NCBI GenBank assembly: GCA_008632985.1
Contig: QPGO01000283.1
Span: 54,631-74,630, forward strand
Source: Psammoneis japonica
Lineage: Eukaryota
Direction: 5' to 3'
DNA length: 20,000 nucleotides
How positions within the stretch are numbered: the stretch's first letter is position 1; the number at the start of each line of letters is the position of its first letter. This document shows, one piece after another, positions 2,892-20,000 of this stretch. A model generated the notes under the pieces. That model ran no database searches and was not told the origin of the DNA. It was given only the letters and a program-made list of their open reading frames with translations. The translations under genes were made by a program, and so were the position numbers.

Positions 2892-3138
2892 TGACAGAAA
2901 TTGAAAATGACTGGGTGGAAGAAAACAATGACTCCTGACTGCTGTCTAAACAGCAGATGAGTCTACGTGCAGAGACCATCACAGGAGCCGAAAGACTGGT
3001 GTTGTGATGTTGGCACTGCTGTCATTGTTCTTTTGAGCTGAGTGGCTTGAAAGCAATGTGCATCATGCACATCACATGCGGAACTAAGAGGACATGCAAT
3101 TGTGTGTGACAAACTAAAATCTTGTTCAAATCCTGTCA
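2892..3138 (-). repeat. 3' LTR of element A (247 bp)
   Basis: Aligns end to end with 16620-16863; TG...CA termini; preceded on the minus strand by the PPT-position motif and the RNase H end. Confidence 0.92.
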
Positions 3139-3150
3139 CTTCCCAGTTTG
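3139..3150 (-). other. Putative plus-strand priming site (short PPT) of element A, CAAACTGGGAAG
   Basis: Abuts the 3' LTR; same motif in B and C (CAAACTGGGGAG). Confidence 0.6.
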
Positions 3151-6100
3151 ATTGAGGAGTCCACAGCAACAGATTCAAAATTGGATTGATCAAAGGCCTC
3201 GGGATCAAAGTTCCAAAACACAAGAGGATGGAGGAGGTTCCAAACCTGGGAGCAACCCCAGTGTTTGCTGAGGATGTCAGCATGATTGCGGGAACCTTCA
3301 ATGAAGTGGAACTCAAAGAAACCAGAGGCAATTGCCTCATGCACATGATGGAACAAGAGGACAGTGTGTTGCTTGTGTAACTTGGAGTGTGGCATGGGGC
3401 ACTGTCCACAACCAACTTGTTGTCCCCAAACATGCAACAGGTGTCACAGATTGGGACACCAAGGCAATGCAATGCAGTGCACAGATCAATGATCTGTTCA
3501 ATGCTTGTCCTTGCAACAACAAACTCAAATCCATGCATCACAGTCTTGACTGTTGCTGGTTTCTTGGAGAATCAATCAGCCAAGAACTTGTTGAGGAAAT
3601 GAGTGATGCCCGTGACTGAGCATCCGGTGAGCATGCAATGGAGAAAGTTTGCATCAACATGATGGGTTGTGGTGATGAACTTGCCAAGTGGCTTGGGCGC
3701 ATCTTGTGGGAGCAGCTCTTCTGCCTCCCCACACACAGATTGGGCCCAGTTGTGCATGGGCTTGGGGAGGTCCAAACTGTTGGGTTCCTTCATGCACACT
3801 TGGAGGGCACCATGTGGCAATGGACAAGAATCCACACACATGTTTGGCATGGTCCAGGTGGCCTTGATGGGGTGTGGCATGGAAACTGCACAGGGACATT
3901 ACGGCTGCAGCAACATCAATGTGACTGAGGGACACAGCCCATTGCAGGGAACCAATCAGGGATTGGAGTTGGTGGATGCCATCAGCTCTAAGTAATTCAG
4001 AGGTGATGAGCTCAGGGTGGTCTCCCTTCTCAAGAGGGGAAAGCACGCACAGTTGTTGACCATGTGCTCAATGCAATTGCAAGGAGCAAGGCACAGGGTG
4101 CCATTGGAATCATGGGTGAAGTTGCAACCAAGGTGGAACTCCAGTGGTCTAGTGCCCTTGAGCTTGAACTTGCATTTCTCTGTGAGAGTGTCTGCAAAAG
4201 CTTGGGGGTCCTTCATGGCAAAGGCCAGGTCGTCCACATGCACTGCCATGTGTTTGCAGTGGTCACCATCCAGATGTCGGGTTTGGCATGGCATGGGGAG
4301 AAACCTTCTGCATGCAAACAATTGGCAAAGCATTCATGCCACCTGAGGCCAGAGCTGTGGAATCCATGTGACGCCTTGTGGATGAAAAGGATGTGTCCTT
4401 CCAGCTTGCCACATTTGGGGCCTGCCACAATGTGCAGTTTCTCCTTGGTCGTGGCTTCAAGACAGGCATTCCCAATGTCGGTCAACCAAGTCTCTAGTTC
4501 ATTGAGTTTGGCCAGGAAGGTCATCAACCAAAGGCCGCAGAGGGACACTGCTCCAGAGCAGACACTGTCAATGGGTGTGTCTGTGAGGTGTCCATCAGCA
4601 ACAAGTCGTGCTTTGTGCCTTCCATCATGTTTGATGTCACAGACAAGATCCACCCTAATCTTCTTGTGTCCTGCTGGGGCACTGGAGTCCTTGCAGTGTC
4701 TGCAATCATGAAAGACCTCACACTCACCAAGCTGAGTCATCTCAAGGTCCATTGCATCTCCCCACTTGTGGTTGCCATTGCGCTCCTCAAGGGCCAAGGC
4801 ATGCTTGCAATCCTGGGGCACTTCACACCCATGCTTGCATCGTGATGCAGTGCAGAACGAGCACAGCTTGGCTTGGTTGGCTGTGCAGAATGGCTTTTTC
4901 TGGTGCAGAGCCACACTTTGGAAGCATTTTCATCCATCAGTTTTGAGCAAACCATGCTCACATGCATGGATGGCACAAGTGATGGATTGTCTTTGGCAAT
5001 GATGGCAAGAGGTTCCAACGTGATCTTCCCATTCTCCCATTCAAGCATGATGTTGTAGCTTGAGCCTTTCCAGGAGGGGTGATGAGGTCTCAATGGTCCT
5101 TTGTGTGAGACGATGTGTCAGAACTTCCAGAGAGCAGAGTCCTTGTCTTCCTGCTCAATGTGGTGCATGATGTCATTGCAGGCAAGGATTTCCTCACATT
5201 CATCATTGTCAATGGTGCAAATGAATTTGACTGGTTCTGGGTTGTTGCCAATTTCCCAGTCATGGTCTTCAACAGCCTTGATGATGCGGGCTCTGCAGTG
5301 TTGTCCGTCTTCTTGTGGCTTCAAGAGGAAGGTGCATCCAATGATGTCCTCGGGGTCAAAGACCGGCATTTTGGGCATCCTGATCACCTCCACATCTGGT
5401 GAATCTGGTGAATCCTTGGAGTCTTGTTGAGTTTTGATGATGGGTTTGGCAAATTTTTCATCGGGAGGGTCAAGATGCAGGTTGGAAGCAGACGGGTCAT
5501 GGGCGGAATGCACGTTGGAGTGGCAAAGAATCTTCTGAGCATTGTCAGAAAGAATTTTGAACGTCATTTGATGACCCACCGGTTCAGCAATGCCGATGAA
5601 GGGACCACACAACTTGCGGGATTCAGACGGCCAGTCAGAATCATCAAGGTGGTGGCACACAGGTTCCCACGATTAAAAGCGGAGGAGGGGGCTGATGTCG
5701 GGGGTGGATCTGGACAGCACTTTGGTGGGAGCATGCCAGTGAAGCTTGGCAGATGCTGCATGGTCAAGCACAAAGCACATGCACATGAGGGCCACAAGCC
5801 AGGTGCAGGCCGGGGATCCAAGCAATCCATGATGGTGTTGGCCATGTTCTTCACAGTTTGGTGGCAGCGCTCAGCAAAATTCTGGTGTTGTTGGTGGGGC
5901 TGGCTTTGCTGACTGGAGATGAAGAGGGCACGAAGGATGCTGAGAACCTTGTCACTGATCTCAACCTGAGCACGGTCACTGATGAGCTTGGACGGAGCAC
6001 CACGGTTGTGAATGTTGTCTTTGAGCATGTTGATGAATTCCTTGTCAGTCTTGGTGCTGCACACATCCATGATGTTGGATTCCATGCCAAGGAAGAGCTG

Positions 6101-8138
6101 AGTGCTGACACATCTAGAGTCAATGGCAGGGGTGTCAAAGTGCACCACATCAGTGGCAACGGGTTCATTACGTTGGTGGACATTGAGAGCCGGGTTGGGC
6201 AACTTGCATGCCTTTTTCAGGTGCATGCTGATGGGCATGTGAGCATGCTGTGTCATGCAATCAAAAGTCCTGCAAACAGTGTCCTTTGGGAGGAAGCCAT
6301 GGCAGTGGCGGAGGGACTCACAATGGTTGGGATCCTTGGGGTTGATCTCACTCTCATGGCAATCATAGAAAAAATCAGATGTTGGGATGATGTGGTCATC
6401 AAGGATGGAGTTCACAAGCATGGCATTGTGGATGACATGTTGGTGGCGATGGTTGCCAAACTCATCAAAGAGGTTGGTGGTTGGGTTGTCTTTGAGGTCT
6501 GACATGGTGCCATGCCACGTCTCATTGTCTGTGAACTGTTGGTCGAGGATGGATGGGTCCCAGGTGTCATCACCAGTGAGGATGACATCAGGCAGAGTGT
6601 CCCATTCCGCATTGGTGTGCAGTCATGTTGCAATGTGTGGCAGGCTGCCTTTGATGTCAATGGGGATGACGTGCCTGTCAATGGTGGTGATGTGCTGCAG
6701 ACCATTGGGGACCTTGATCGACCGATCGTTGATGTCATGTTTGCACAACTTGAGTTGGCCGCACAAGTGCATGGTCTTGCCCTTTCCAGTGCAGGTGCAC
6801 CAGTGAAGGATGGCAACAATGGGTCCACATTGTGTGTGGATTGCACCACAGGCAGTGACAATGGGAATGTTGACAAGCTGATGGTTGTCCATGTGTCAAC
6901 CTGGTGATCAGTGTGGGTGATGACATGAACATCATCACCAGCGATGCCACAATTTGTGCCAAGATCTATGAGAGCACCCTTGTGAGTTGAGTTGTGTGTT
7001 GAGGCGGAGTCCACAACATTGTGGTCATTGGCACAACGGCAAGTGTGACTGTTGATCTCAATGTTGGTGGCAGCATCACAGGAGAATGTTGATCCAGGGA
7101 GTTTGTCACTAGAGCGGGCCAAGGGTGGCCTGTTGGGTGCAAGGAGATGTTGCAAGTCACTGGGTGACAGAGGCTTGTGCTTGGTGAGGTGCACCAGGAT
7201 GGGGTTAGCATCAGTTGCATCGGCTGCAGTGTCAGGTGGTTTGGGGGCCGACGCAAGATCATGGGCATTGGCAAACAAGTTGACATTGCCATTGCTGCCC
7301 AGATGGAAGGGTCATGCAGGTTCACAGCCATTGAGTCATGGCAGTTGCTGGCACGGGCAGTGCGCAAGCCAAGGATGATGGCCTTGGTGGACTGAGGCAA
7401 GGTGTCCCAGATGCGCTGGTGATCTGGTGGATTGCAATGCCATTGTTCCCTGGTGAGGGAGGAGGCACCACGAGTCTGTGCAACATGAGCCTGGATGACA
7501 TCAATGTCACTGTCAATGTCGAAGAACACATCATCATCAGGGTCATCGGGGGCCAGGTCATGGGCACTGACAGTGTGGCACAGAGTGCATGAGGCCGTCT
7601 TGGGGATGAACGTGCTGTCCTGCTGTGCTGCCATGGAAAGCAGGAGCCCACAACATTGCTCATGTGAAAGGCTTGTGCCATTCAGTGTGCAATGCTGATT
7701 GGCTTGGTTCCACATCTGAATGGAGTTTGTTGCCAGGGTGAATGGCATTCTCATGCATGACACGTTTCTGGCCAGCAGAGAAGCAGTCTGCAGTCAGGAT
7801 CAGAGCTTTGCACTTGCAAAGTTGGTCATGCCAGTGAAGTGTGAAGGCATGGGTGGTGTCTTTCCAGGTGCCATCACCAAGGCGAGCAGTGCTGAGATGT
7901 GCAACAAGGGTCGATGACTCCAGGATGCACAGGCAGATGCAAGGGCACACTTGGACAGTTCACGGTGCACTGCTTGAGCATCAGACATGTTCACAAATGA
8001 GAGCCTTGCCCTTGTCATTTTGCAAGATGTGCTCAAACACAGCAAACATGCATTTCTGTTGTTCAGCAAACAGGGCTTTGTCCTCAGCCACAGAGGGCTT
8101 GCATGTCAGATCAAGGATGCGGTCAATGTCCTGAGAGT

Positions 8139-8143
8139 GGGCC
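8139..8143 (+). repeat. Left target-site duplication of element B (GGGCC)
   Basis: Identical 5-mer at 15252-15256 immediately after the 3' LTR. Confidence 0.95.
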
Positions 8144-8419
8144 TGACAGGATTTGAACAGGATTTAGGTGCGCGCGAAATGTCGCGCGCTGTTTAGTTTA
8201 CCGCGCACAGTTTTGTGTGCTTTGGTTCCGCGCGTTCGCGCGCGATGTAGTTTGCTTTCGAGCCACAAGGCTCACAAGAATAATGACAGTAGCCCGATTA
8301 TACCGACTTACACGTCTTTCGGCTCCTGCAACGGTCTCTGAGCGGAGACTCATCTGCCATGTAGACAGCAGCAAGGAGTTGTTGTTTGAATTCTTGCCAT
8401 TTGCCTTCAATTTCTGTCA
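8144..8419 (+). repeat. 5' LTR of element B (276 bp)
   Basis: TGACAGGATTTGAA...TTCAATTTCTGTCA; 15 substitutions and no indels versus 14976-15251 (manual alignment). Confidence 0.97.
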
Positions 8420-8430
8420 GATTAACAGTC
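8420..8430 (+). other. Putative primer-binding site complementary to a tRNA-Asn(GUU) anticodon arm (GATTAACAGTC)
   Basis: Directly follows the 5' LTR; reverse complement GACTGTTAATC reads as stem GA + loop CT-GTT-AA + stem TC; conserved in A at 16609-16619. Confidence 0.6.
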
Positions 8431-9249
8431 TTGCTCATTGTCAACCCATTGAGCAACCGCCATCGTCGTCGTTGATTTACCGACGACGCTATTTCAATTC
8501 TGCGTGGACCTCCGTGTGTGTTCTACATACATCGGCAAGTTTACGTGCGTTCAACACCAGGCATCGGCAGGAATTTAACGTCACCGTCAAGTCTCCTTAC
8601 CGCTGGATGTCTGGATTGATTGTGCCACCTTTGATCGCTGAAGACATGCATCAACGGTCATATCCAAGTCTATCCTTGATCCTCATCCCTTGACACACCC
8701 ATTCAATGGTTAACGGTCAAGAACCCTACATATTCAAGGATCTTCGTCGCTGAAGACACACATGTGTACATGTCTTCACGGCCAAGGACTTGAACCCACC
8801 CTTTGGACTGCGGCTTTGCCACCACTCTACAAGCACGCCGAGTCTATTGTACCTGATCTACCCCGGACCACTGGTGCTCTACAGTTCTACTAGGTCCACG
8901 AGGACAACTGTGAGAGCAAGCAGCCGTGATTGCAGCCTACGTTGGGGCGAGGGTGTTTTCCCGCGTTTGTTCGTTCGTCCACAGCGCCTAACGCCTACGT
9001 CAACTGGCCAGCCTGATCGGGAAATCCAACCGACATAAAATAAGAACGGTTCGGGGGTCTTGTCCACCTCTAGTCAGCTTACCTGCAGGGGGTTTACAAC
9101 CCGCTACTCCGCTCATAAGCAACCCAAAGCGCCACTGGCTGCGGGTGCGGACGTGCCGGCACAACTCTACGGACCGGATAGGAAGTTTAGCACTTGACAA
9201 CGAACGGGATAGCAAAGCCCAGCGACTTCTGATTTTAAGGTAGTTCAAG

Positions 9250-9304
9250 ATTTCAAGTCAAGTCTATTTCAAGTCAAGTCTATTCTCACCCAAGTTTCAA
9301 GTCT
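9250..9304 (+). repeat. TTTCAAGTCAAGTCT-type tandem repeats in the 5' leader of B
   Basis: 16-bp unit atttcaagtcaagtct x2 (9250-9281) plus caagtttcaagtct; homologous array in A at 15807-15867. Confidence 0.8.
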
Positions 9305-9364
9305 ACCTTCACCACCTTCGCTTCCCAACAAGAATTGCTTGTCCTGACACCACTTTTGTCTGCC

Positions 9365-12300
9365 ATGGTTCTCACTTGTCAGCAACAAACCGATGGTTTC
9401 GAGCACGTTGTTGGAACCGTGCTTGCCCAAGGTGCTGGGAGCCCTCTTCGTTTGGCTTTGACCCAAGACGGCACAGACTCGCACCAAGAACTGTTCACGT
9501 TCATACCGTCCCAAATCGACTCGCTTGAGTACGACAACGGCACTAGTGTGATCCCTTTGCCCCGCAGTTATAAGAACATGTTAGCAGCTCTAATTAGTCT
9601 GTACATTGTCAAAGCACATGAAGGTCTTGACGTTGCCAATGACTCCTCGTTGTTCACGCATGACGAGTTCCTTGCCTGCCGCCTCAGCCCCGACTACATG
9701 TCTTCTGTGTCCGTCGGCAGCTCACCCCTCGCACCTCCGCATGTCACCAACCCGACCAAGGCACGCGACCCGGTACGAGACTTCAAGCGAGGCATCAAAC
9801 GTGACCCCACCGCTTTCACGGCTCTCAAATCCGACAAGCAGTGGCACACTTGGCACACCTCACTTGTGGCACAAGCCCGTGCCCAAGACGTCGAGTGCAT
9901 TCTAGTCTCGTCGTACAAACCGACCAGCCCCGAAGACAAACTGCTCTTTGCTGAACAGCAAAAGTACATGTTTGCCGTCTTCGAACGCATTCTTCTCACC
10001 GACAAGGGCAAGGCTCTCATTCGCGAAAATGTGGGGTCTTCTGATGCCCAGACCGTCTACCGCGCCTTGTCTGAGCATGCGCTCGCCTCCACCCGCGCAT
10101 CCATTGAGTCCTCCACCTTGCTCACGCACCTTGCCACCGCACGTCTTGGTGATGGCACTTGGAAAGGTCCGACCCACGGGTTCATCCTTCATTGGCAGGA
10201 TCAGTTGCGCAAGTGCGAGGCACTCATCCCGGCCAGTGACCACTTCTCTGAAGGACAGAAGCGCGTCATGCTCGAGAATGCCGCACACCCTGTCGAGGAA
10301 CTCCGTGCTGTCAAGAACCAAGCTGATCAGCATCGTACGCAGAGTGGCAAGAGCCTCACATGCGATCAATGCTGTGGCTTGCTCCTCTCCGCGGCGGCTC
10401 AATACGACAGTGCGTTTCAACCCAAGACGACACCTCAAGCTCCCCGACGTGCCACACACACACACGATGTCCACTCCGAGGAACCGTCCGACGATGTGTT
10501 CTACGACATTGACAGCGACATTGACGTCCTTCAGGCTAATGCTGCCTACACCCGTGGTCCCAGCCTCACCGGTGACCAATGGAAACGTCTCCCTCCCGAC
10601 CACCAACGGATTTGGGATTCGTTGCCCCATTTCTCCAAGGCGATCATCCTTGAGCATTCTCGTCCGCCTCCCCGCAACCCGCGAGCCAGCAACTGCCATG
10701 AGTCTGTTATGGCCAACCTTCATGACCAACGCCTTGGGAGTGACGGTGATGTCAACTTGTCCAACACGACTCCTGCTGACTCTGGTGACCCCGCTCCAAA
10801 TGTGGGTGCCACTTTGGATAATCCCATCCTGGCGCACCTCACCAAGCACAAGCCACTGCCACCCGGTGATCTGCAATGTCTGTTGTCTCCTAACCAAGCC
10901 CCCAACGCCAGTCGACCAGGGCCATCCGCCGCTCCCTCTACTCCGCCAGCTCCTGCCGATGACATGGAACTTAACGGCCACACTTGCCGCCGCGTTAACA
11001 ACCACAAATGCTCTGCCTCTGCTCATTGCTCCACACGCACTGGTGCTCTAGTCAATCGTGGGGCCAACAGCGGCATTGCTGGCGACGACGTCCGCGTCAT
11101 TGCACGCACCTCTCGCCAAGTCGACGTTCAGGGCATTGACGACCACCAATTGGTGGACATCCCCATTGTCACCGCTGGTGCCGTCATTGAGACCCAGCGT
11201 GGTCCCGTCATCGCCATCCTCCATCAGCACGCACACACGGGCAAGGGCAAGACCATTCATTCCTGTGGCCAGCTCGAATGGTACAAACAGGATGTCAACG
11301 ATCGCTCTGTCAAGGTGCCCAACGGCTTGCAACGTATTGCCACCCCTGATGGCTATGTCATCCCCATTGACATCAAGGGCGGCCTGCCTTGTGTTGCCAT
11401 GCGACCTTACACTGATGCCGAATGGGACACCCTGCCCCATGTCATCCTCACCGGTGATGACACATGGGATCCTTCCGTCCTCGATCACTCTGTCACTGAC
11501 GATGACCAGTGGTACGACGCGATCTCTGACCCACAGGACGATCCCACTGCCAACCTGTTTGACGAATGCGGCAACTGCCGTCATCGTGTCGTTGTCAACG
11601 AGACCATCATGTCCGCTTCCTTGTCTGCCGATCATGCGTCAGCCCTCGATGATCACCTCATTCCGAACGACGACGTGTTCTGCGCGTGTCATCTACACGC
11701 GGTTGACCCCAAGGACGCCGACGTCCCGCCCCCGGAGCGCACTGTGCAACCCAAGGACCCCCCCTTCGAGTCTCTTCGGCCTAACTTTGGCTTCCTGCCT
11801 GCCGATGCGGTCCGTCGCACTTTTGACTGCACCACGCAGTACGCCCGCATGCCCACCGGTACACACCTCAGGAAGGCCTGCAAATCACCCAACCCCGCCC
11901 TTAATGTGCACCGCCGCAACGAGCCTATCGCCACTGACACAGTTTATGCCGACACCCCGGCCGTCGACTCTGGTTGCACCAGCGCCCAACTGTTTGTTGG
12001 CACCAAGTCTACCGTCACTGACGTCTGCGGCACCAAGACGGACAAGGAGTTTGTCAACACACTTGAGGATCAGATCCATGAGCATGGTGCCCCATCCAAA
12101 CTCACAAGTGACCGTGCTCAAGTTGAGATCAGCAACAAGGTGCTCGGGATTCTACAAGCCCTCTTCATCTCCAGCTGGCAAAGTGAGCCTCACCAGCAAC
12201 ACCAGAACTTTGCCGAGCGTCGACACCAGACCGTGAAGCGCATGGCGAACACTGTCATGGACCGTTTCGGTTCGCCTGCCCACACATGGCTGCTGGTGCT

Positions 12301-15028
12301 CATGTACATGTGCTTCACACTCAACCATGCAGCGTCCCCACGTCTCCACTGGCGCGCGCCCCTCGAGACTCTCACTGGCTCCACCCCGGACATCAGCCCA
12401 TTGCTTCGCTTTCACTGGTGGGAACCCGTGTGCTTCCACCTCGATGACTCCGATTGGCCGTCCGAATCCCGTGAGTTGCGTGGACGCTTTGTTGGCATTG
12501 CTGAGCACGTCGGCCACCAGATGACCTTCAAGATTCTCTCTGACGAGACTCAGAAGATCCTCTGCCGGTCCAACGTACGCTCCGCCACCACCGATCCTGC
12601 CGTTTGAAACCTGCGTCTTGATCCTCCTGATGGGGAGCCACCTGAACCCATCATCAAATCTCGCCATGACAACAACCCCATCGATTCTCCTGATGGGGAG
12701 ATCAGGACACCCAAGATGCCAGTTTTCGATCCGCAAGACATCATTGGACGCACCTTCCTCATGCAGCCACAAGAGAACGGACAACGCCACAGAGCTCACA
12801 TCGTCAAGGCCGTCGAAGACCATGAATGGAAAGTGAACGGCAATCCCGAGCTCACTAAGTTTGTCTGCTCTGTCAACAATGACGAACACGAGGAAGTCCT
12901 TGCCTGCAACGACATCATGAATCACATTGAGCAAGAAGACGAAGACACTGCTGTTTGGAAATTTCGACGCATTGTGTCACACGAAGGACCTCTGAAGCCT
13001 CATGACCCAACCTGGAAAGGCTCAAGCTACAACATCATGCTTGAATGGGAAAGTGGGGAGATCACGTCCGAGCCTCTTGCCATCATCGCCAAGGACGACC
13101 CCGTCACCTGCACCATCTATGCACGAGAGAACGGACTTCTCGACACTGATGGCTGGAAGCGGTTCCGCACCATCGCGAGGCGCCAAAAGAAGCTATTTCG
13201 CATGGCCAACCAAGCCAAGCTTCGCTCCTTCCACACTGCACCTCGCTACAAGTACGGATGCGAAGTTCCCCGGAACTACAAACACGCCATGTCACTAGAC
13301 GAACGCAACGGCAACCGCAAATGGGGAGACGCAACTAACCTCGAGATGGACCAACTCGAGGAATACGAAGTCTTTCATGACTGCGGGCCCTCCGAGTCTT
13401 CCACTCCTCCTGCGGGACACAAGAAGATCCGAGTGCACCCAGTGTACGACGTGAAACACGACGGACGCCACAAGGCACGACTCGTAGCCGATGGGCACCT
13501 CACGGATGTACCTGTCGACAGTGTCCACTCCGGAGTAGTCTCCCTCCGTGGCCTTCGGCTGATGATTTTCCTGGCCGAACTCAACGAGTTAGAGACATGG
13601 GCCACCGACATTGGCAATGCCCACCTTGAAGCCACCACCAAGGAGAAGCTCTACATTGTGGCCGGACCCGAATTTGGCAAACTCGAAGGACACATCCTTG
13701 TCATCCACAAGGCCCTGTATGGACTGCGCAGCTCTGGTCTCCGCTGGCACGAGCGCTTCGCCGACTGCCTGCGAGCTGAAGGATTCTTCCCCTGCCGTGC
13801 CGAACCTGACATTTGGATGTGCAGGAACGGCGACCACTGTGAATACATTGCCGTTTGTGTGGATGACCTCGCCATTGCTGTGAAGGACCCTCAATCTTTC
13901 GTCGACACTCTCACGGAAAAGTACAAGTTCAAGCTCAAGGGCACGGGACCCATTGAGTTCCATCTGGGTTGCGACTTTTCCCGGGATCCCGACGGAACCT
14001 TGTGCCTGTCTCCGCGCAAGTGCATCGAGCGCATGGTTGACAGCTACGCCCGACTGTTTGGGGAGAAACCTGCCACCAATGCCCTGTCACCTCTGGAGAA
14101 GGGTGACCACCCCGAACTGGACACTTCCGAACTGCTGGGGCCCGATGGCATTCACAAGTTCCAGTCTCTTGTTGGTTCACTCCAGTGGGCAGTGTCCCTT
14201 GGCCGAATTGACATCACCACGGCCGTCATGTCACTCTCTAGCTTCCGAGCTGCGCCCCGTCAAGGCCACTTGGACCGTGCCAAACGCGTCTGTGGTTGCC
14301 TCTCCAAGATGCGACACGGCGCTCTCCGCGTTCGTACGGAAGAGCCCGACTGTTCGGATCTCCCTGCTCCGGCCCATGAATGGATGCATTCCGTGTACGG
14401 CAAAGCAGAAGAGATGATCCCGAAGGATGCTCCACCGCCCCTTGGCAAGTTCGTCACTACCACCCACTACGTCGATGCAAACTTGTACCATTGCATGCTC
14501 ACCGGACGCTCTGTCATGGGAATGCTCCACTTCCTCAACAAATTCCCAGCTGATTGGTTCTCTAAGAAGCAAGCTACCGTGGAGACTGCGACCTGCGGGT
14601 CTGAATTTGTTGCCGCAAGGACTTGTGTCGAACAGATTGTCGACCTGTGCATCACCCTGCGCTACCTTGGCGTCCCGATCCGCAATGTCAGTTACATGTT
14701 CGGTGACAACAAGTCGGTTGTAGACAGTGCCACCATCCCGCACTCCAAGTTACACAAGCGACACACCGCACTATCGTTCCACCATGTGCGTGAGGCGATT
14801 GCCTCTGGTTACCTTGAGTTCCACTTCATCGAAGGTTCCCGCAACCCTGCTGACATTCTCAGCAAGCATTGGGGTCACTCCCAAATCTGGGACCTTCTCT
14901 GCCCCCTCATGTTCTGGAACTTCATTCCATCCGAAGTCGAATCTGTTTCTGTGACTCCTCAAGCAAACTGGGGAGTGACAGGATTTGAGTGGGATTTAGG
15001 TGCGCGCGAAATGTCGCGCACTGTTTAG
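9365..15028 (+). pseudogene. gag-pol polyprotein of element B (about 1887 codons, one frame; nonsense at 12605-12607 and mutated catalytic motifs)
   Basis: ORFs 9335..12607 and 12716..15028 are in the same frame. ATG at 9365 (MVLTCQQQTDG) matches A (MVLTRQQQTDG). PR GALVNRGANSG (~11045), IN core ATD...SDRAQVE...QNFAERR (~11930-12230), RT KARLVADG/KALYGL/CVDDL (~13470-13870), RNase H YVDAN/SEF/FGDNKS/NPADILSK (~14465-14865). Confidence 0.95.
14964..14975 (+). other. Putative short PPT of element B (CAAACTGGGGAG), inside the pol frame
   Basis: Abuts the 3' LTR TGACA; identical in C at 17517-17528 (minus strand). Confidence 0.6.
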
Positions 15029-15251
15029 TTTGCCACGCACAGTTTTGTGTGCTTTAGTTCCGCGCGTTCGCGCGCGATGTAGTTTGCTTTCGAGCCACAA
15101 GGCTCACAAGAATAACAACAGTGGCCCGATTATACCGACTTACACGTCTTTCGGCTCCTGCAACAGTCTCTGAGTGGAGACTCATCTGCTGTTTAGACAG
15201 CAGCAAGGAGTTGTTGTTTGAATTCTTGCCATTTGCCTTCAATTTCTGTCA
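14976..15251 (+). repeat. 3' LTR of element B (276 bp)
   Basis: Direct repeat of 8144-8419, followed by TSD GGGCC. Confidence 0.97.
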
Positions 15252-15256
15252 GGGCC
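15252..15256 (+). repeat. Right target-site duplication of element B (GGGCC)
   Basis: Matches 8139-8143. Confidence 0.95.
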
Positions 15257-15755
15257 TGTGCGATGATTGAGGTGTGCCACATGTGCCACTGTTTGTTGGA
15301 CTTAAGAGTTGCGAGTGTGAGTGGGTCATGTTTGATGCCTTGTTTAAAGTCACACATGGGGTCATGTGGTTTTGGGGGCAATGAGCCAGGCATGGGAGCA
15401 GATGGCACGGCACCCATGGAGAGGGATGCTGTGCACTCAGGACTAAGACAACAGTCAGTGAATTCTTCATGTGTGAAAAAGGTGGGATGTCAGCACCTTC
15501 GCACACTTTTGCCATGCACAGACTAATTGACACAGCCATCTGTGCTTTGCAGCCACATGGCAAGGGCGTTTGATTGGCGCCGTTGTTGTTAACTGGGGCA
15601 CAGAGTTGAGTCGGAGTAAAAGTGAAGACATCCTGGCATGAGTCTGTGCTGTCAATGCTGAGGGCTGAGTGCAATGGACTGTCTGTGGCTTGATTCAGAA
15701 CAGTGCCTAAGATGTGCTCAAGGCCATCAGTTTGTTGCTGTCTGGTGAGGACCAT
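15252..15755 (-). pseudogene. gag N-terminus of element A, cut off by insertion of B
   Basis: MVLTRQQQTDGLEHILGTVL... and DFKQGIKHDP...KSNKQWHMWHTSIIAQA align to B gag; one frameshift. Confidence 0.9.
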
Positions 15756-15806
15756 GGTGCAACTGAGTGGGTGCCGGAACTGGAGTTGGAGGGTGAGCTT
15801 AAAACA

Positions 15807-15867
15807 ACTTGAAACTTGACTTGAAACTTGACTTGAAACTTGACTTGAAACTTGACTTGAAAACTTG
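15807..15867 (-). repeat. 12-bp tandem array (CAAGTTTCAAGT)x5 in the 5' leader of A
   Basis: acttgaaacttg x4 perfect plus one copy with an extra A on the + strand. Confidence 0.92.
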
Positions 15868-16608
15868 AACCATCTTACAAATCAGAAGCCGCCAGGCTGT
15901 GACATCCCGTTTGTAGTTAAATGCCAAGCTTCCCATCCGGTCTGCAGAGTTGTGCCGGCACATCTGAACCCATGCTGGCGATGCTTTGGGTTGCCCGAGA
16001 GCAGAGTGATGGGTTAAAAACCACTGCTGACAAGCCAACTAGAGGCAGACAAGACCTCGGAACCTTTGTCATTTTACGTTGGTTGGATAACCCAATCAGG
16101 CGGGCCAAGAAAGGCTCTGTGGAGGGACGAGCAAATGTGGGAAAGGCACCCTCGCCCTAACCCAGACTGCAATCATGGCCACTTCCCCTCACAGTTGTCC
16201 TGGTGGACCTTGTAGAACTGTAGAAGACCAGCAGTCTGGGGTGGATGTGGAGCAATGAACTTGGCGTGCACGCAACAAGGCCAGAGTCGGAGTGCATCGC
16301 ATGTGTGCGTGCGTGCAGAGATCAGTGGAGCCTGAGTGGGACAGGTTGGTCTGTCTGTCAACCTGGGTGGGATCCACTGTGGGAACTCAGAATCTCAGGT
16401 GTTGGAGAGTGTGAGAATTTCTGACAGAATGAATGTCTGTTGAATGGACATGTCCAGCGATTGGACACCTTGAACAGGTCCAAACACACTGATCCTGTCC
16501 AATGTTCATCAATGAGGAAGTTAGGTGCATGCTTCCACCGCCAAAAATGTGCGTCATCAAAAATTTCTTGACAATGATGATGAAGGCTCAATGGATTAAA
16601 ATGAGCAA

Positions 16609-16619
16609 GACTGTCAATC
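16609..16619 (-). other. Putative primer-binding site of element A (GATTGACAGTC)
   Basis: Same position and sequence as in B except one TA>TG change. Confidence 0.55.
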
Positions 16620-16863
16620 TGACAGAAATTGAAGATGACTGGGTGGAAGAAAACAGTGACTCCTTGCTGTCTGAACAGCAGATGAGTCTCTGTGTAGAGA
16701 CCATCACAGGAGCTGAAAGACTGGTGCAGTGACACCGGTGCTGCTGTCATTGTTCTTGTGAGCCAAGTGGCTTGAAAGCAAACTACATCATGCACGTTGC
16801 GCACAGAACCAAGAGAACACACAATTGTGTGTGACAAACTAAAATCTTGATCAAATCCTGTCA
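16620..16863 (-). repeat. 5' LTR of element A (244 bp)
   Basis: Homologous to 2892-3138; followed on the minus strand by the PBS-like motif, leader and gag. Confidence 0.92.
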
Positions 16864-17236: not shown

Positions 17237-17516
17237 TGACAGAAATTGAAGGCAAATGGCAAGAATTCAAACAACAACTCCTCACTGCTGTCTAAACAGC
17301 AGATGAGTCTCTGCTCAGAGACCGTCACAGGAGCCGAAAGACGTGCAAGTCGGTATAATCGGGCTGCTGTCATTGTTCTTGTGAGCCGAGTAGCTCGAAA
17401 GCAAACTACATCTCGCACGCGCACGCGCGGAACTAAAGAGCACACAAAACTGTGCGCGGTAAACTAAACAGCGCGCGACATTTCGCGCACACCTAAATCC
17501 TGTTCAAATCCTGTCA
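17237..17516 (-). repeat. 3' LTR of element C (280 bp)
   Basis: Reverse complement of the B LTR with two 2-bp insertions; TGACAG...CTGTCA termini. Confidence 0.95.
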
Positions 17517-20000
17517 CTCCCCAGTTTGCTTGAGGAGTCACAGAAACAGATTCGACTTCGGATGGAATGAAGTTCCAAAACATGAGGGGACGGAGAAGGT
17601 CCCAGACTTGGGAGCAACCCCAATGCTTGCTGAGAATGTCAGCAGGGTTGCGGGAGCCTTCGATGATGTGGAACTCAAGGTGGCCAGAGGCAATCGCCTC
17701 ACGCACACGGTGGAGCGATAGTGCGGTGTGTCGCTTGTGTAACTTGGAGTGCGGGATGGTGGCACTGTCCACAACCGACTTGTTGTCACCGAACATGTAA
17801 CTGATGTCACGTGTCGGGACACCGAGGCAACGCAGGGTGATGCGCAGGTCGATGATCTGCTCGACACAAGTCCTTGTGGCAACAAATTCAGACCCGCAGG
17901 TCGCAGTCTCCACGGTGGCTTGCTTCTTAGAGAACCAATCAGCCGGGAATTTGTTGAGGAAGTGGAGCATTCCCATGACAGAGCGTCCGGTGAGCATGCA
18001 ACAATGCAAGTTTGCATCGACGCAGTGGGTGGCAGTGACAAACTTGCCAAGGGGCAGTGGAACGTCCTTCGGGATCATCTCCTCTGCTTTGCCACACACG
18101 GAATGCATCCATTCACAGGTCGGTGCAGGGAGATCCAAACAGTTGGGCTCTTCCGTGCGAACGTGGAGAGCGCCGTGTCGCATCTTGGAGAGGCACCCAC
18201 AGACGCGTTTGGCACGATCCAAGTGGCCTTGACGGGGTGCAGCTCGGAAGCCAGAGAGTGACATGACGGCCGTGGCAATGTCAATTCGACCAAGAGACAC
18301 TGCCCATTGGAGGGAACCAACAAGAGACTGGAACTGTTGAATGCCATCGGGCTCCAGCAGTTCGGAAGTGTCCAGTTCGGGGTGGTCACCCTTTTCCAGA
18401 GGGGGACAGGACGTTGGTGGCAGGTTTCTCCCCAAACAGTCATGTGCAGCTGTCGACCATGTGTTCGATGTGCTTGCGCGGAGACAGACACAAGGTGCCG
18501 TCAGGATCCCGGGAGAAGTCGCAGCCTAGATGGAACTCAATCAGTCCCGCACCCTTGAGCTTGAACTTGTGCTTTTCCGTGAGAGCATTGACGAAAGATT
18601 GAGGATCCTTCATGGCAATGGCGAGGTCATCCACATAAACGGCAACACATTCGCAGTGGTCGCCGTTCCTGCGCATCCAAATGTCGGGTTCGGCGCGGCA
18701 GGGAGAGAAACCTTCAGCTCACAGGCAATCGGCGAAGCGCTCGTGCCAGTGGAGGCCGGAGCTGCGCAGTCCATGCAGGGCCTTGTAGATGACGAGAATG
18801 TGGCCTTTCGAGTTTGCCAAACTCGGGTCCAGCTACAATGTACAGCTTCTCCTTGGTGGTGGCTTCAAGGTGGGCATTGCCAATGTTGGTGGCCCATGTC
18901 TCCAACTCGTTGAGTTCAGCCAGGAAAATCATCAGCCGAAGGCCACGAAGGGACACTGCTCCAGAGTAGACACTGTCGATGGGTACGTCCGTGAGGTGTC
19001 CATCGGCTGCGAGTCGTGCCTTGTGGCGTCCGTCGTGTTTCACGTCGTACACTGGGTGCACTCGGATCTTCTTGTGTCCCGCAGGAGGAGTGGAAGACTC
19101 GGAGGGCCCGCAGTCATGAAAGACTTCGTATTCCTCGAGTTGGTCCATCTCGAGGTTAGTTGCGTCTCCCCATTTGCGGTTGCCGTTGCGTTCGTCTAGT
19201 GACATGGCGTGTTTGTAGTTCCGGGGAACTTCGCATCCGTACTTGCAGCGAGGTGCAGTGTGGAAGGAGCGAAGCTTGGCTTGGTTGGCCATGCGAAATA
19301 GCTTCTTTTGGCGCCTCGCGATGGTGCGGAACCGCTTCCAGCCATCAGTGTCGAGAAGTCCGTTCTCTCGTGCATAGATGGTGCAGGTGACGGGGTCGTC
19401 CTTGGCGATGATGGCAAGAGGCTCGGACGTGATCTCCCCACTTTCCCATTCAAGCATGATGTTGTAGCTTGAGCCTTTCCAGGTTGGGTCATGAGGCTTC
19501 AGAGGTCCTTCGTGTGACACAATGCGTCGAAATTTCCAAACAGCAGTGTCTTCGTCTTCTTGCTCAATGTGATTCATGATGTCGTTGCAGGCAAGGACTT
19601 CCTCGTATTCGTCGTTGTTGACAGAGCAGACAAACTTAGTGAGCTCGGGGTTGCCGTTCACTTTCCAGTTGTGATCTTTGATGGCCTTGACAATGCGAGC
19701 TCTGTGGTGTTGTCTGTCCTCTTGTGGCTGCATGAAGAAGGTGCATCCGATGATGTCTTGCGGATCGAAAACTGGCATCTTGGGTGTCCTGATCTCCCCA
19801 TCAGTTGAATCGACGGGGTCATTGTCATGGCGAGATTTGATGATGGGTTCAGGTGGCTCCCCATCAGGAGGATCAAGACGCAGGTTTCGAACGGAGGGAT
19901 CGGTGGTAGCGGATCGTACATTAGACCGGTGGAGGATCTTCTGAGTGTTGTCAGAAAGAATCTTAAAGGTCATCTGGTGGCCGATGTGTTCAGCAATGCC
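17464..20000 (-). pseudogene. pol of element C (integrase C-terminal region, RT, RNase H), disrupted
   Basis: ORFs 18714..19973, 18440..18676 (YVDDL), 17464..18435; +1 frameshift at 18806-18808, CGA>TGA stop at 18440-18442, +1 frameshift in the G run at 18401-18405. Confidence 0.93.

Follow-up and report, generated by a model that had tools for sequence, protein, structure and literature searches.

Integrated mobile DNA in the genome of Psammoneis japonica is subject to a mutational process that changes the adenine of TpA to guanine, on either strand and independently from site to site, and thereby turns TA steps into TG or CA. The process is recorded in a 20,000-nucleotide stretch (assembly GCA_008632985.1, contig QPGO01000283.1, positions 54,631 to 74,630 of the forward strand; hereafter the window) that contains three related Ty1/copia elements, namely the 7-kb element B on the forward strand, the older element A on the reverse strand, in which B is nested, and element C, also on the reverse strand. 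It is documented here from the paired long terminal repeats (LTRs) of element B, from LTR pairs of its family and from other repeats and genes of the same genome. We regard it as nearly certain that the changes arise in chromosomal DNA after integration; the explanation as a whole, in which an adenine deaminase is responsible, is given a probability of about 0.6.

The LTR pair of element B

In an ungapped comparison of 8144-8419 with 14976-15251, the LTRs of element B differ at 15 positions over 276 bp, of which 13 lie in TA or CG context and two outside, exactly as in the preliminary description. There are three TA/TG differences (8200/15032, 8224/15056 and 8291/15123), three CG/CA differences (8188/15020, 8203/15035 and 8333/15165), one CG/TG difference (8343/15175) and three CA/TG doublets (8158-59/14990-91, 8284-85/15116-17 and 8358-59/15190-91); the two outside these contexts are A/G at 8157/14989 and G/T at 8361/15193. 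A random transition would count as in-context at about 52% of LTR positions, and 13 of the 14 transitions in B do so (p=0.0017). The doublets had all been read as changes in opposite directions in the two LTRs, which is true of two of them, both genuine TA splits; at LTR positions 15-16 only the 3' LTR has changed: of the 68 LTRs, 67 have CA there and the one with TG is B's 3' LTR, where the change adjoins the A/G difference at position 14. When polarised by allele counts in 66 other LTRs, the 5' LTR has four derived changes and the 3' LTR has 11, in line with the earlier statement that both are mutated.

The spectrum of this single pair says little about common parentage, because unrelated copies also differ mostly at TA and CG sites. 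The possibility that B's LTRs came from different parents by recombination, which the preliminary description had named as one of two findings that would overturn its claim, is further suggested by the lack of any minority variant shared by the two LTRs at non-target positions (those outside TA and CG contexts), by a three-base cluster in the 3' LTR, and by target-site duplications (TSDs) with at least two mismatches in 8 of 44 candidate pairs of the family. We nevertheless consider it very improbable: B has an intact, matching 5-bp TSD, which argues for a common origin of its LTRs, element A continues on both sides, and LTR partners across the family are akin at non-target sites, a result independent of B. 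Partial gene conversion may have occurred in B alone. The features of the window are as follows, with TA and CG contents given as observed/expected ratios (o/e).

8139 to 8143, forward strand: left TSD of element B, GGGCC
8144 to 8419, forward strand: 5' LTR of element B, TG...CA, 276 bp, four derived changes
8420 to 8433, forward strand: conserved site that follows B's 5' LTR, at the predicted primer-binding-site position
9365 to 12607, forward strand: gag-protease-integrase part of the polyprotein frame of element B, with an in-frame stop at 12605-12607
12608 to 15028, forward strand: reverse transcriptase and RNase H of element B, same frame past the stop (RVT_2, E=1e-24)
14966 to 14975, forward strand: purine-rich tract (AACTGGGGAG) ahead of the 3' LTR of element B
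14976 to 15251, forward strand: 3' LTR of element B, 11 derived changes
15252 to 15256, forward strand: right TSD of element B, GGGCC
2892 to 8138, reverse strand: 3' part of element A, an older related copia and the insertion target of B (TA o/e 0.03-0.09, CG 0.12-0.36)
15257 to 16863, reverse strand: 5' part of element A, including its other LTR (16620-16863)
17237 to 20000, reverse strand: element C, which belongs to B's family (88-96% identity with B) and is truncated where the contig ends

LTR pairs across the family

The top 40 of 957 candidates from a search with B's 5' LTR, together with 20 of the top 40 matches of a gag search, provided 44 same-orientation LTR pairs. Thirty-four of these, B included, have a perfect 5-bp TSD; the other ten were dropped for TSD mismatch (two with one mismatch, eight with more, several of them three-LTR nests). 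The 34 pairs show the same excess of TA/TG and TA/CA differences as B, with 524 of 561 substitutions in context: 84 TA/TG, 85 TA/CA, 66 CG/TG and 53 CG/CA single changes and 118 opposite-direction CA/TG doublets, the remainder being 22 transitions and 15 transversions. Among transitions alone, 524 of 546 are in context (p about 1e-118), and the 11 pairs chosen through gag, which are free of LTR-based selection, give 223 of 242.

Such a spectrum cannot by itself time the changes, because unrelated copies differ in the same way. The timing comes from a comparison of partners with non-partners. At non-target sites partner LTRs differ by 1.18 and unrelated LTRs by 2.6 (none of 5000 permutations was as low), whereas at TA columns the figures are 11.5 and 11.95 (p=0.17) and the table of pair states is near independence (TG/TG 86 vs 80 expected, CA/CA 63 vs 62). 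Partners are thus kin at non-target sites and strangers at TA sites, and the TA sites must therefore have changed after insertion. In two further pairs the TSDs themselves differ at one TA/TG or TG/CG step (n=2), a change on DNA that never passes through RNA. Most of the changes are accordingly post-insertional, as had been claimed, though not all of them: at 4 of the 16 TA-centred LTR sites both LTRs of B carry the same changed state, and a subfamily of 11 copies with 15 shared non-target variants has inherited about 21 TA changes (12 TG and 9 CA; 11 of the roughly 21 in the synonymous direction). A partly mutated parent therefore still transposed, and its changes were likewise two-stranded.

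An origin before integration, through ADAR-like RNA editing or reverse-transcriptase error, is scarcely credible. It would agree with TG being somewhat more frequent than CA on the sense strand within the element (2259 vs 1496) and with a background of private changes in which A-to-G exceeds C-to-T. The TG excess, however, is mostly due to the context of the following base (0.53 at palindromic sites, p=0.25; strand term 0.11), the inherited changes include both TG and CA, and the signature is also present in copies of DNA transposons, which are never reverse-transcribed. The earlier argument for mutation on integrated DNA is upheld by the strand balance of 84 to 85 and by the independence of LTR partners at TA sites.

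Direction and context of the changes

TA is consumed in this process. Each of the 16 LTR sites centred on TA has TA, TG and CA among its states, and CG makes up only 3 of the 1086 states; TA is never seen at the 23 sites centred on CG; and TA o/e is 0.38 in B as against 0.03-0.09 in the older A. At 25 tyrosine columns conserved in 120 outside homologs (52-71% identity), 27 full-length copies of the family have Cys 283 times, His 122 times and Tyr 187 times; B itself has Cys or His at eight of them, and its reverse transcriptase has CVDD at 13856, where a tyrosine motif is usual. This direction is opposite to that of fungal repeat-induced point mutation (RIP), which makes TpA from CpA. Fungal-type RIP was considered since it involves the same dinucleotide pairs, and the C-to-T polarity expected of it was rejected: TA falls with age and the protein changes run from Tyr to Cys or His. 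A RID-related DNMT4 is reported from some diatoms (PMC9998398); we would still give RIP almost no weight. The same low weight applies to an artefact of long-read base calling at modified bases. Eight listed k-mer contig pieces (62-344 bp, depth 21-37) from sequencing run X1, which is possibly the assembly's own sample, have no differences to the TA-erased element A or to the A-B junction, which argues against such an artefact; in runs X2-X4 nothing but the multicopy LTR was covered, and they are uninformative here.

The changes are almost pure transitions and are confined to TA. In the 27 copies, 202 internal TA-centred columns hold 3755 TG or CA states, 1636 TA states and 15 of transversion type. 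Private A-to-G changes outside TA occur at 2.8 per 1000, equally after A, C or G (ApA 2.6 vs CpA/GpA 2.8 per 1000, p=0.77), and the excess at TA is about 200-fold per adenine. Within TA, an adenine followed by C or T is changed more often (0.45 and 0.37) than one followed by A or G (0.21 and 0.25); a preference for xAT was apparent at first and failed for private changes (p=0.21). There are no strand-coordinated runs at 30, 100 or 300 bp. Sites in the changed state and sites in the unchanged state each tend to lie together, over distances of up to about 500 bp and in part through shared descent, and the load of TA changes per copy ranges from 0.26 to 0.85, with many copies near 0.8.

CpG is lost alongside TpA. 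The TA hazard in the family is about ten times the CpG hazard, the TA and CG loads co-vary among copies (rho=0.72), and a TA change is slightly commoner where a neighbouring CpG of that copy has changed as well (+0.047, p=0.006), its direction being unrelated to that of the CpG change (p=0.85). These are probably two processes that share a target domain.

Two explanations other than deamination draw on these data. According to the first, a modified adenine or thymine at TpA in repeats would deaminate or mispair much as 5-methylcytosine does at CpG. Such a base would account for four features that are seen, namely the near purity of the transitions, the strict dependence on one dinucleotide, the absence of strand runs and the slow saturation, and the TA and CG loads co-vary locally as well as among copies. 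The TA rate, on the other hand, is tenfold above CpG decay, and AT o/e is 1.0-1.3 in element A, while eukaryotic N6-methyladenine usually lies at ApT and we know of no base mark at TpA; we consider this explanation unlikely. According to the second, which we rate lower still as a doubtful proposal, error-prone repair synthesis of a Pol-eta-like kind in methylated repeats would produce A-to-G at weak-base contexts. WA (W being A or T) is the A:T hotspot of somatic hypermutation (PMC6423074), and the slight association of TA changes with changed CpG would fit; the lack of preference at ApA, the ratio of 15 transversion-type to 3755 transition states at TA columns and the unrelated directions of neighbouring TA and CpG changes speak against it.

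Repeats and genes across the genome

In 20 stretches taken at fixed positions, TA o/e is below 0.2 in 69 of 160 1-kb bins (about 43%), and TA loss correlates with CG loss across bins (r=0.84). Pfam annotation of these stretches (32 of 47 long frames) places host genes, including an aureochrome-type bZIP-PAS gene, in the TA o/e range 0.37-0.71, and for two gypsy pol frames the ratio is only 0.03-0.08. The aureochrome-type gene, together with the otherwise ordinary eukaryotic gene content, indicates an ochrophyte, and the element type, putatively of the CoDi lineages of diatom copia elements, makes a diatom likely. DDE-transposase cores have TA o/e below 0.2 in 16 of 28 cases (two rows overlap one locus), and in six alignments around transposases 83-92% of the differences among piggyBac-like and Harbinger-like copies are in context. 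The affected domains cover several repeat classes and spare genes, and CpG and TpA loss are co-located in them. No look-alike stretches were found in the other genomes surveyed.

Three near-identical piggyBac-like copies (L131, L132 and L137, 97.9-99.3%) have a transposase core with TA intact and an adjoining flank that is erased. L137 differs from the other two mainly by TA changes and is an early stage of the process.

Proposed mechanism

Following integration, a copy is exposed to A-to-G change at TpA within domains hundreds of bases to kilobases wide. CpG disappears from these domains too, at about a tenth of the TpA rate, which is what decay of methylated CpG would give if the domains are methylated. 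Chemically, the adenine would most likely be deaminated to hypoxanthine, whether by a TadA/ADAT-like enzyme or by another deaminase that is recruited to silenced chromatin, and the next replication would fix the change as A-to-G. We lean towards such guided enzymatic deamination, which is favoured because the changes are near-pure transitions, there is no ApA preference, and the off-targets of the engineered deaminase TadA-8e are biased to TA. The effect is the loss of Tyr codons and other TA steps and the disabling of copies, and the process may serve as a defence. Tentatively, and with rather less confidence, we suggest that diatom-like stramenopiles and chlorarachniophytes could share an old defence in which a natural DNA adenine deaminase, guided by CpG-methylated silent chromatin, edits TpA in integrated mobile DNA of all classes until some 85-95% of this TpA is gone. 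If so, it would mirror RIP on the A:T side and amount to adenine base editing that occurs naturally in chromosomes.

Several observations weigh against this account. The LTR-pair evidence comes from one genome and mainly from one family, and no TSD-matched LTR pairs of other families were found in the 85 stretches examined. TadA-like and ADAT2-like genes are present but look ordinary, as expected in any alga. A processive single-strand deaminase acting once would give runs, and same-direction neighbours within 30 bp number 1187 vs 1166+-16. The density of CpG nearby has no bearing on the load of changes at TA sites (rho=-0.03). Transposition of a partly mutated parent makes any defence leaky. 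Finally, some close duplicates are barely touched, among them the piggyBac-like cores L131 and L132 (TA o/e 0.45) and the duplicated dCMP deaminase genes L111 and L112, from which it follows that repetition alone is not the trigger.

The genome contains deaminase candidates and several C5 methyltransferases, none of them diagnostic. One open frame (L115:313-1785, reverse strand) joins a deaminase-like domain to a following 2OG-Fe(II) dioxygenase, as a fusion or as adjacent exons. Several C5 DNA methyltransferase gene copies lie in TA-erased blocks (L125-L127, contigs C301 and C297; L158-L162), with TA o/e about 0.1, CG 0.5-0.9 and stops in some, among copia and endonuclease remnants; they may belong to a mobile element or a viral insertion that brings a methyltransferase of its own.

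Consequences for LTR dating

The expectation that dating by LTR divergence would overestimate age is borne out, by 10.6-fold in the family (bootstrap 7.7-16.6) and about threefold in B. For the 34 pairs, the pooled Kimura two-parameter distance falls from 0.064 when all LTR columns are used to 0.0060 when only the 196 non-target columns are, and 16 of the pairs have no non-target difference at all. If the Phaeodactylum mutation rate of 4.77e-10 per generation (PMC6604790) is borrowed for absolute ages, the family would be 67 million generations old by all sites and 6 million by non-target sites, and B 60 million and about 22 million, the latter driven by the one three-base cluster. Of the 40 non-target changes, 23 are A-to-G, an enrichment opposite to the spectrum known for Phaeodactylum, so that even non-target dates may overstate age. 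An LTR pair in this genome is a recorder of the TpA process and not a clock, and constant-clock dating of transposons is undermined wherever the process operates. In a recent comparison of diatoms, LTR elements were dated by means of the Phaeodactylum rate, and the older peaks found for two araphid species were taken to reflect ancient bursts of transposition (bioRxiv 10.1101/2025.10.24.684338); the term TpA is absent from the text of that preprint. Whether these older peaks survive the masking of TpA and CpG sites is directly testable.

Further features of element B and its relatives

The assignment of B to Ty1/copia is based on its TG...CA LTRs, its 5-bp TSD and an integrase that precedes the RVT_2 reverse transcriptase and RNase H. 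We take NRGA at 11054 to be the protease motif and the residues at 11930, 12104 and 12206 to be the integrase D/D/E motifs, and RNase H is placed by its putative motifs. The 1080-aa gag-integrase frame has no Pfam match in a profile search, an example of how Tyr loss hides TA-eroded elements from such searches. The TA inside the conserved site at 8420-8433 is TA, TG or CA depending on the copy. For element A no matching TSD was found; its LTRs are 84.5% alike and were excluded from the pair counts.

Three stretches (L058, L060 and L061) have three family LTRs within 8 kb, one with a polypurine tract ahead of the internal LTR, and are internally duplicated or recombined elements. In the younger subfamily, the 5' untranslated zone (window 8420-8800 and its equivalent in 11 younger copies) has far fewer TA and CG changes (TA 0.21 vs 0.50-0.67, CG 0.025 vs 0.06-0.11), a pattern that would fit shielding of the promoter end but is confounded by the selection of these copies on LTR likeness. 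Of 28 assignable top LTR matches, 20 are 5' LTRs (p=0.04); the 11 pairs chosen through gag show no such protection (20 vs 16). One of the 120 outside homologs (ENA, P0113) has Cys or His at 10 of the 25 conserved Tyr columns and is at most 70% identical to the sequences examined from this genome; it may come from another organism with the same TA process. An 11-bp unit (ACTTGAAACTT-like) forms a short tandem run at 15810-15870 in the leader of element A, and two related copies lie in B near 9255-9280.

Comparison with known systems

A TA-specific mutation process was found reported in only one unrelated alga, the rhizarian Bigelowiella natans, in whose integrated DNA of nucleocytoplasmic large DNA viruses (NCLDVs) and virophages TpA is hypermutated to TpG or CpA (Mettrop et al., bioRxiv 10.64898/2026.01.13.699255). 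According to that preprint, the changes there affect both strands of chromosomal DNA in regions of foreign origin and are almost pure transitions; they were measured directly in mutation-accumulation lines, in two viral regions, with a per-generation rate raised about 1000-fold and switched on in some lines only. NCLDV sequences have a Rho of 0.45, the 124 TpA-depleted clusters are enriched in transposon domains, and a deaminase is proposed, not shown. In P. japonica, too, A-to-G and T-to-C changes are restricted to TpA on both strands, act on integrated mobile DNA and spare genes. This genome differs in being that of an ochrophyte, in having copia, gypsy and DNA-transposon copies at o/e below 0.1, in the extent of depletion (about 43% of bins) and in the co-depletion of CpG; diatoms, LTRs and CpG are not mentioned in the text of Mettrop et al., whose supplements may list transposon cases. 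The Seminavis genome paper (PMC7335047) gave no match for TpA, dinucleotide, RIP, LTR or hypermutation, and in a search that left most subscription journals outside we found no published TpA hypermutation in diatoms or from LTR pairs.

RIP of ascomycete fungi resembles the present process in its both-strand, dinucleotide-specific transitions confined to repeats, in the two-compartment genome that results and in spoiling LTR dates; the process here differs in running from A:T to G:C, in lacking strand-coordinated runs and in sparing some close duplicates. CpG decay in methylated transposons, for which Phaeodactylum offers DNMT5 and CpG methylation of transposons (PMC9998398), would likewise yield CG to TG or CA on both strands and corresponds to 119 of the 561 LTR differences as single changes; TA to TG or CA is beyond its reach and about ten times faster here. 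The untargeted genome-wide off-targets of the adenine base editor TadA-8e, A-to-G and T-to-C at TA sites (PMC13225742), come from an engineered enzyme and bear on chemical plausibility only. Host-made hypermutation of retroelements by deamination is a likeness shared with APOBEC and ADAR; unlike the present case, in which LTR partners are independent and DNA transposons are hit, these enzymes edit retroviral cDNA and RNA, respectively, before integration, with a strand bias that is copied to both LTRs.

Against this background, the LTR pairs provide an internal proof of action on integrated DNA, and a process measured so far in the integrated viruses of one rhizarian alga is now seen in a stramenopile and in its transposon compartment. 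The hunt for the enzyme may be guided by a signature that combines TpA specificity, near-pure transitions, a preference for adenine before C or T and the absence of strand runs.

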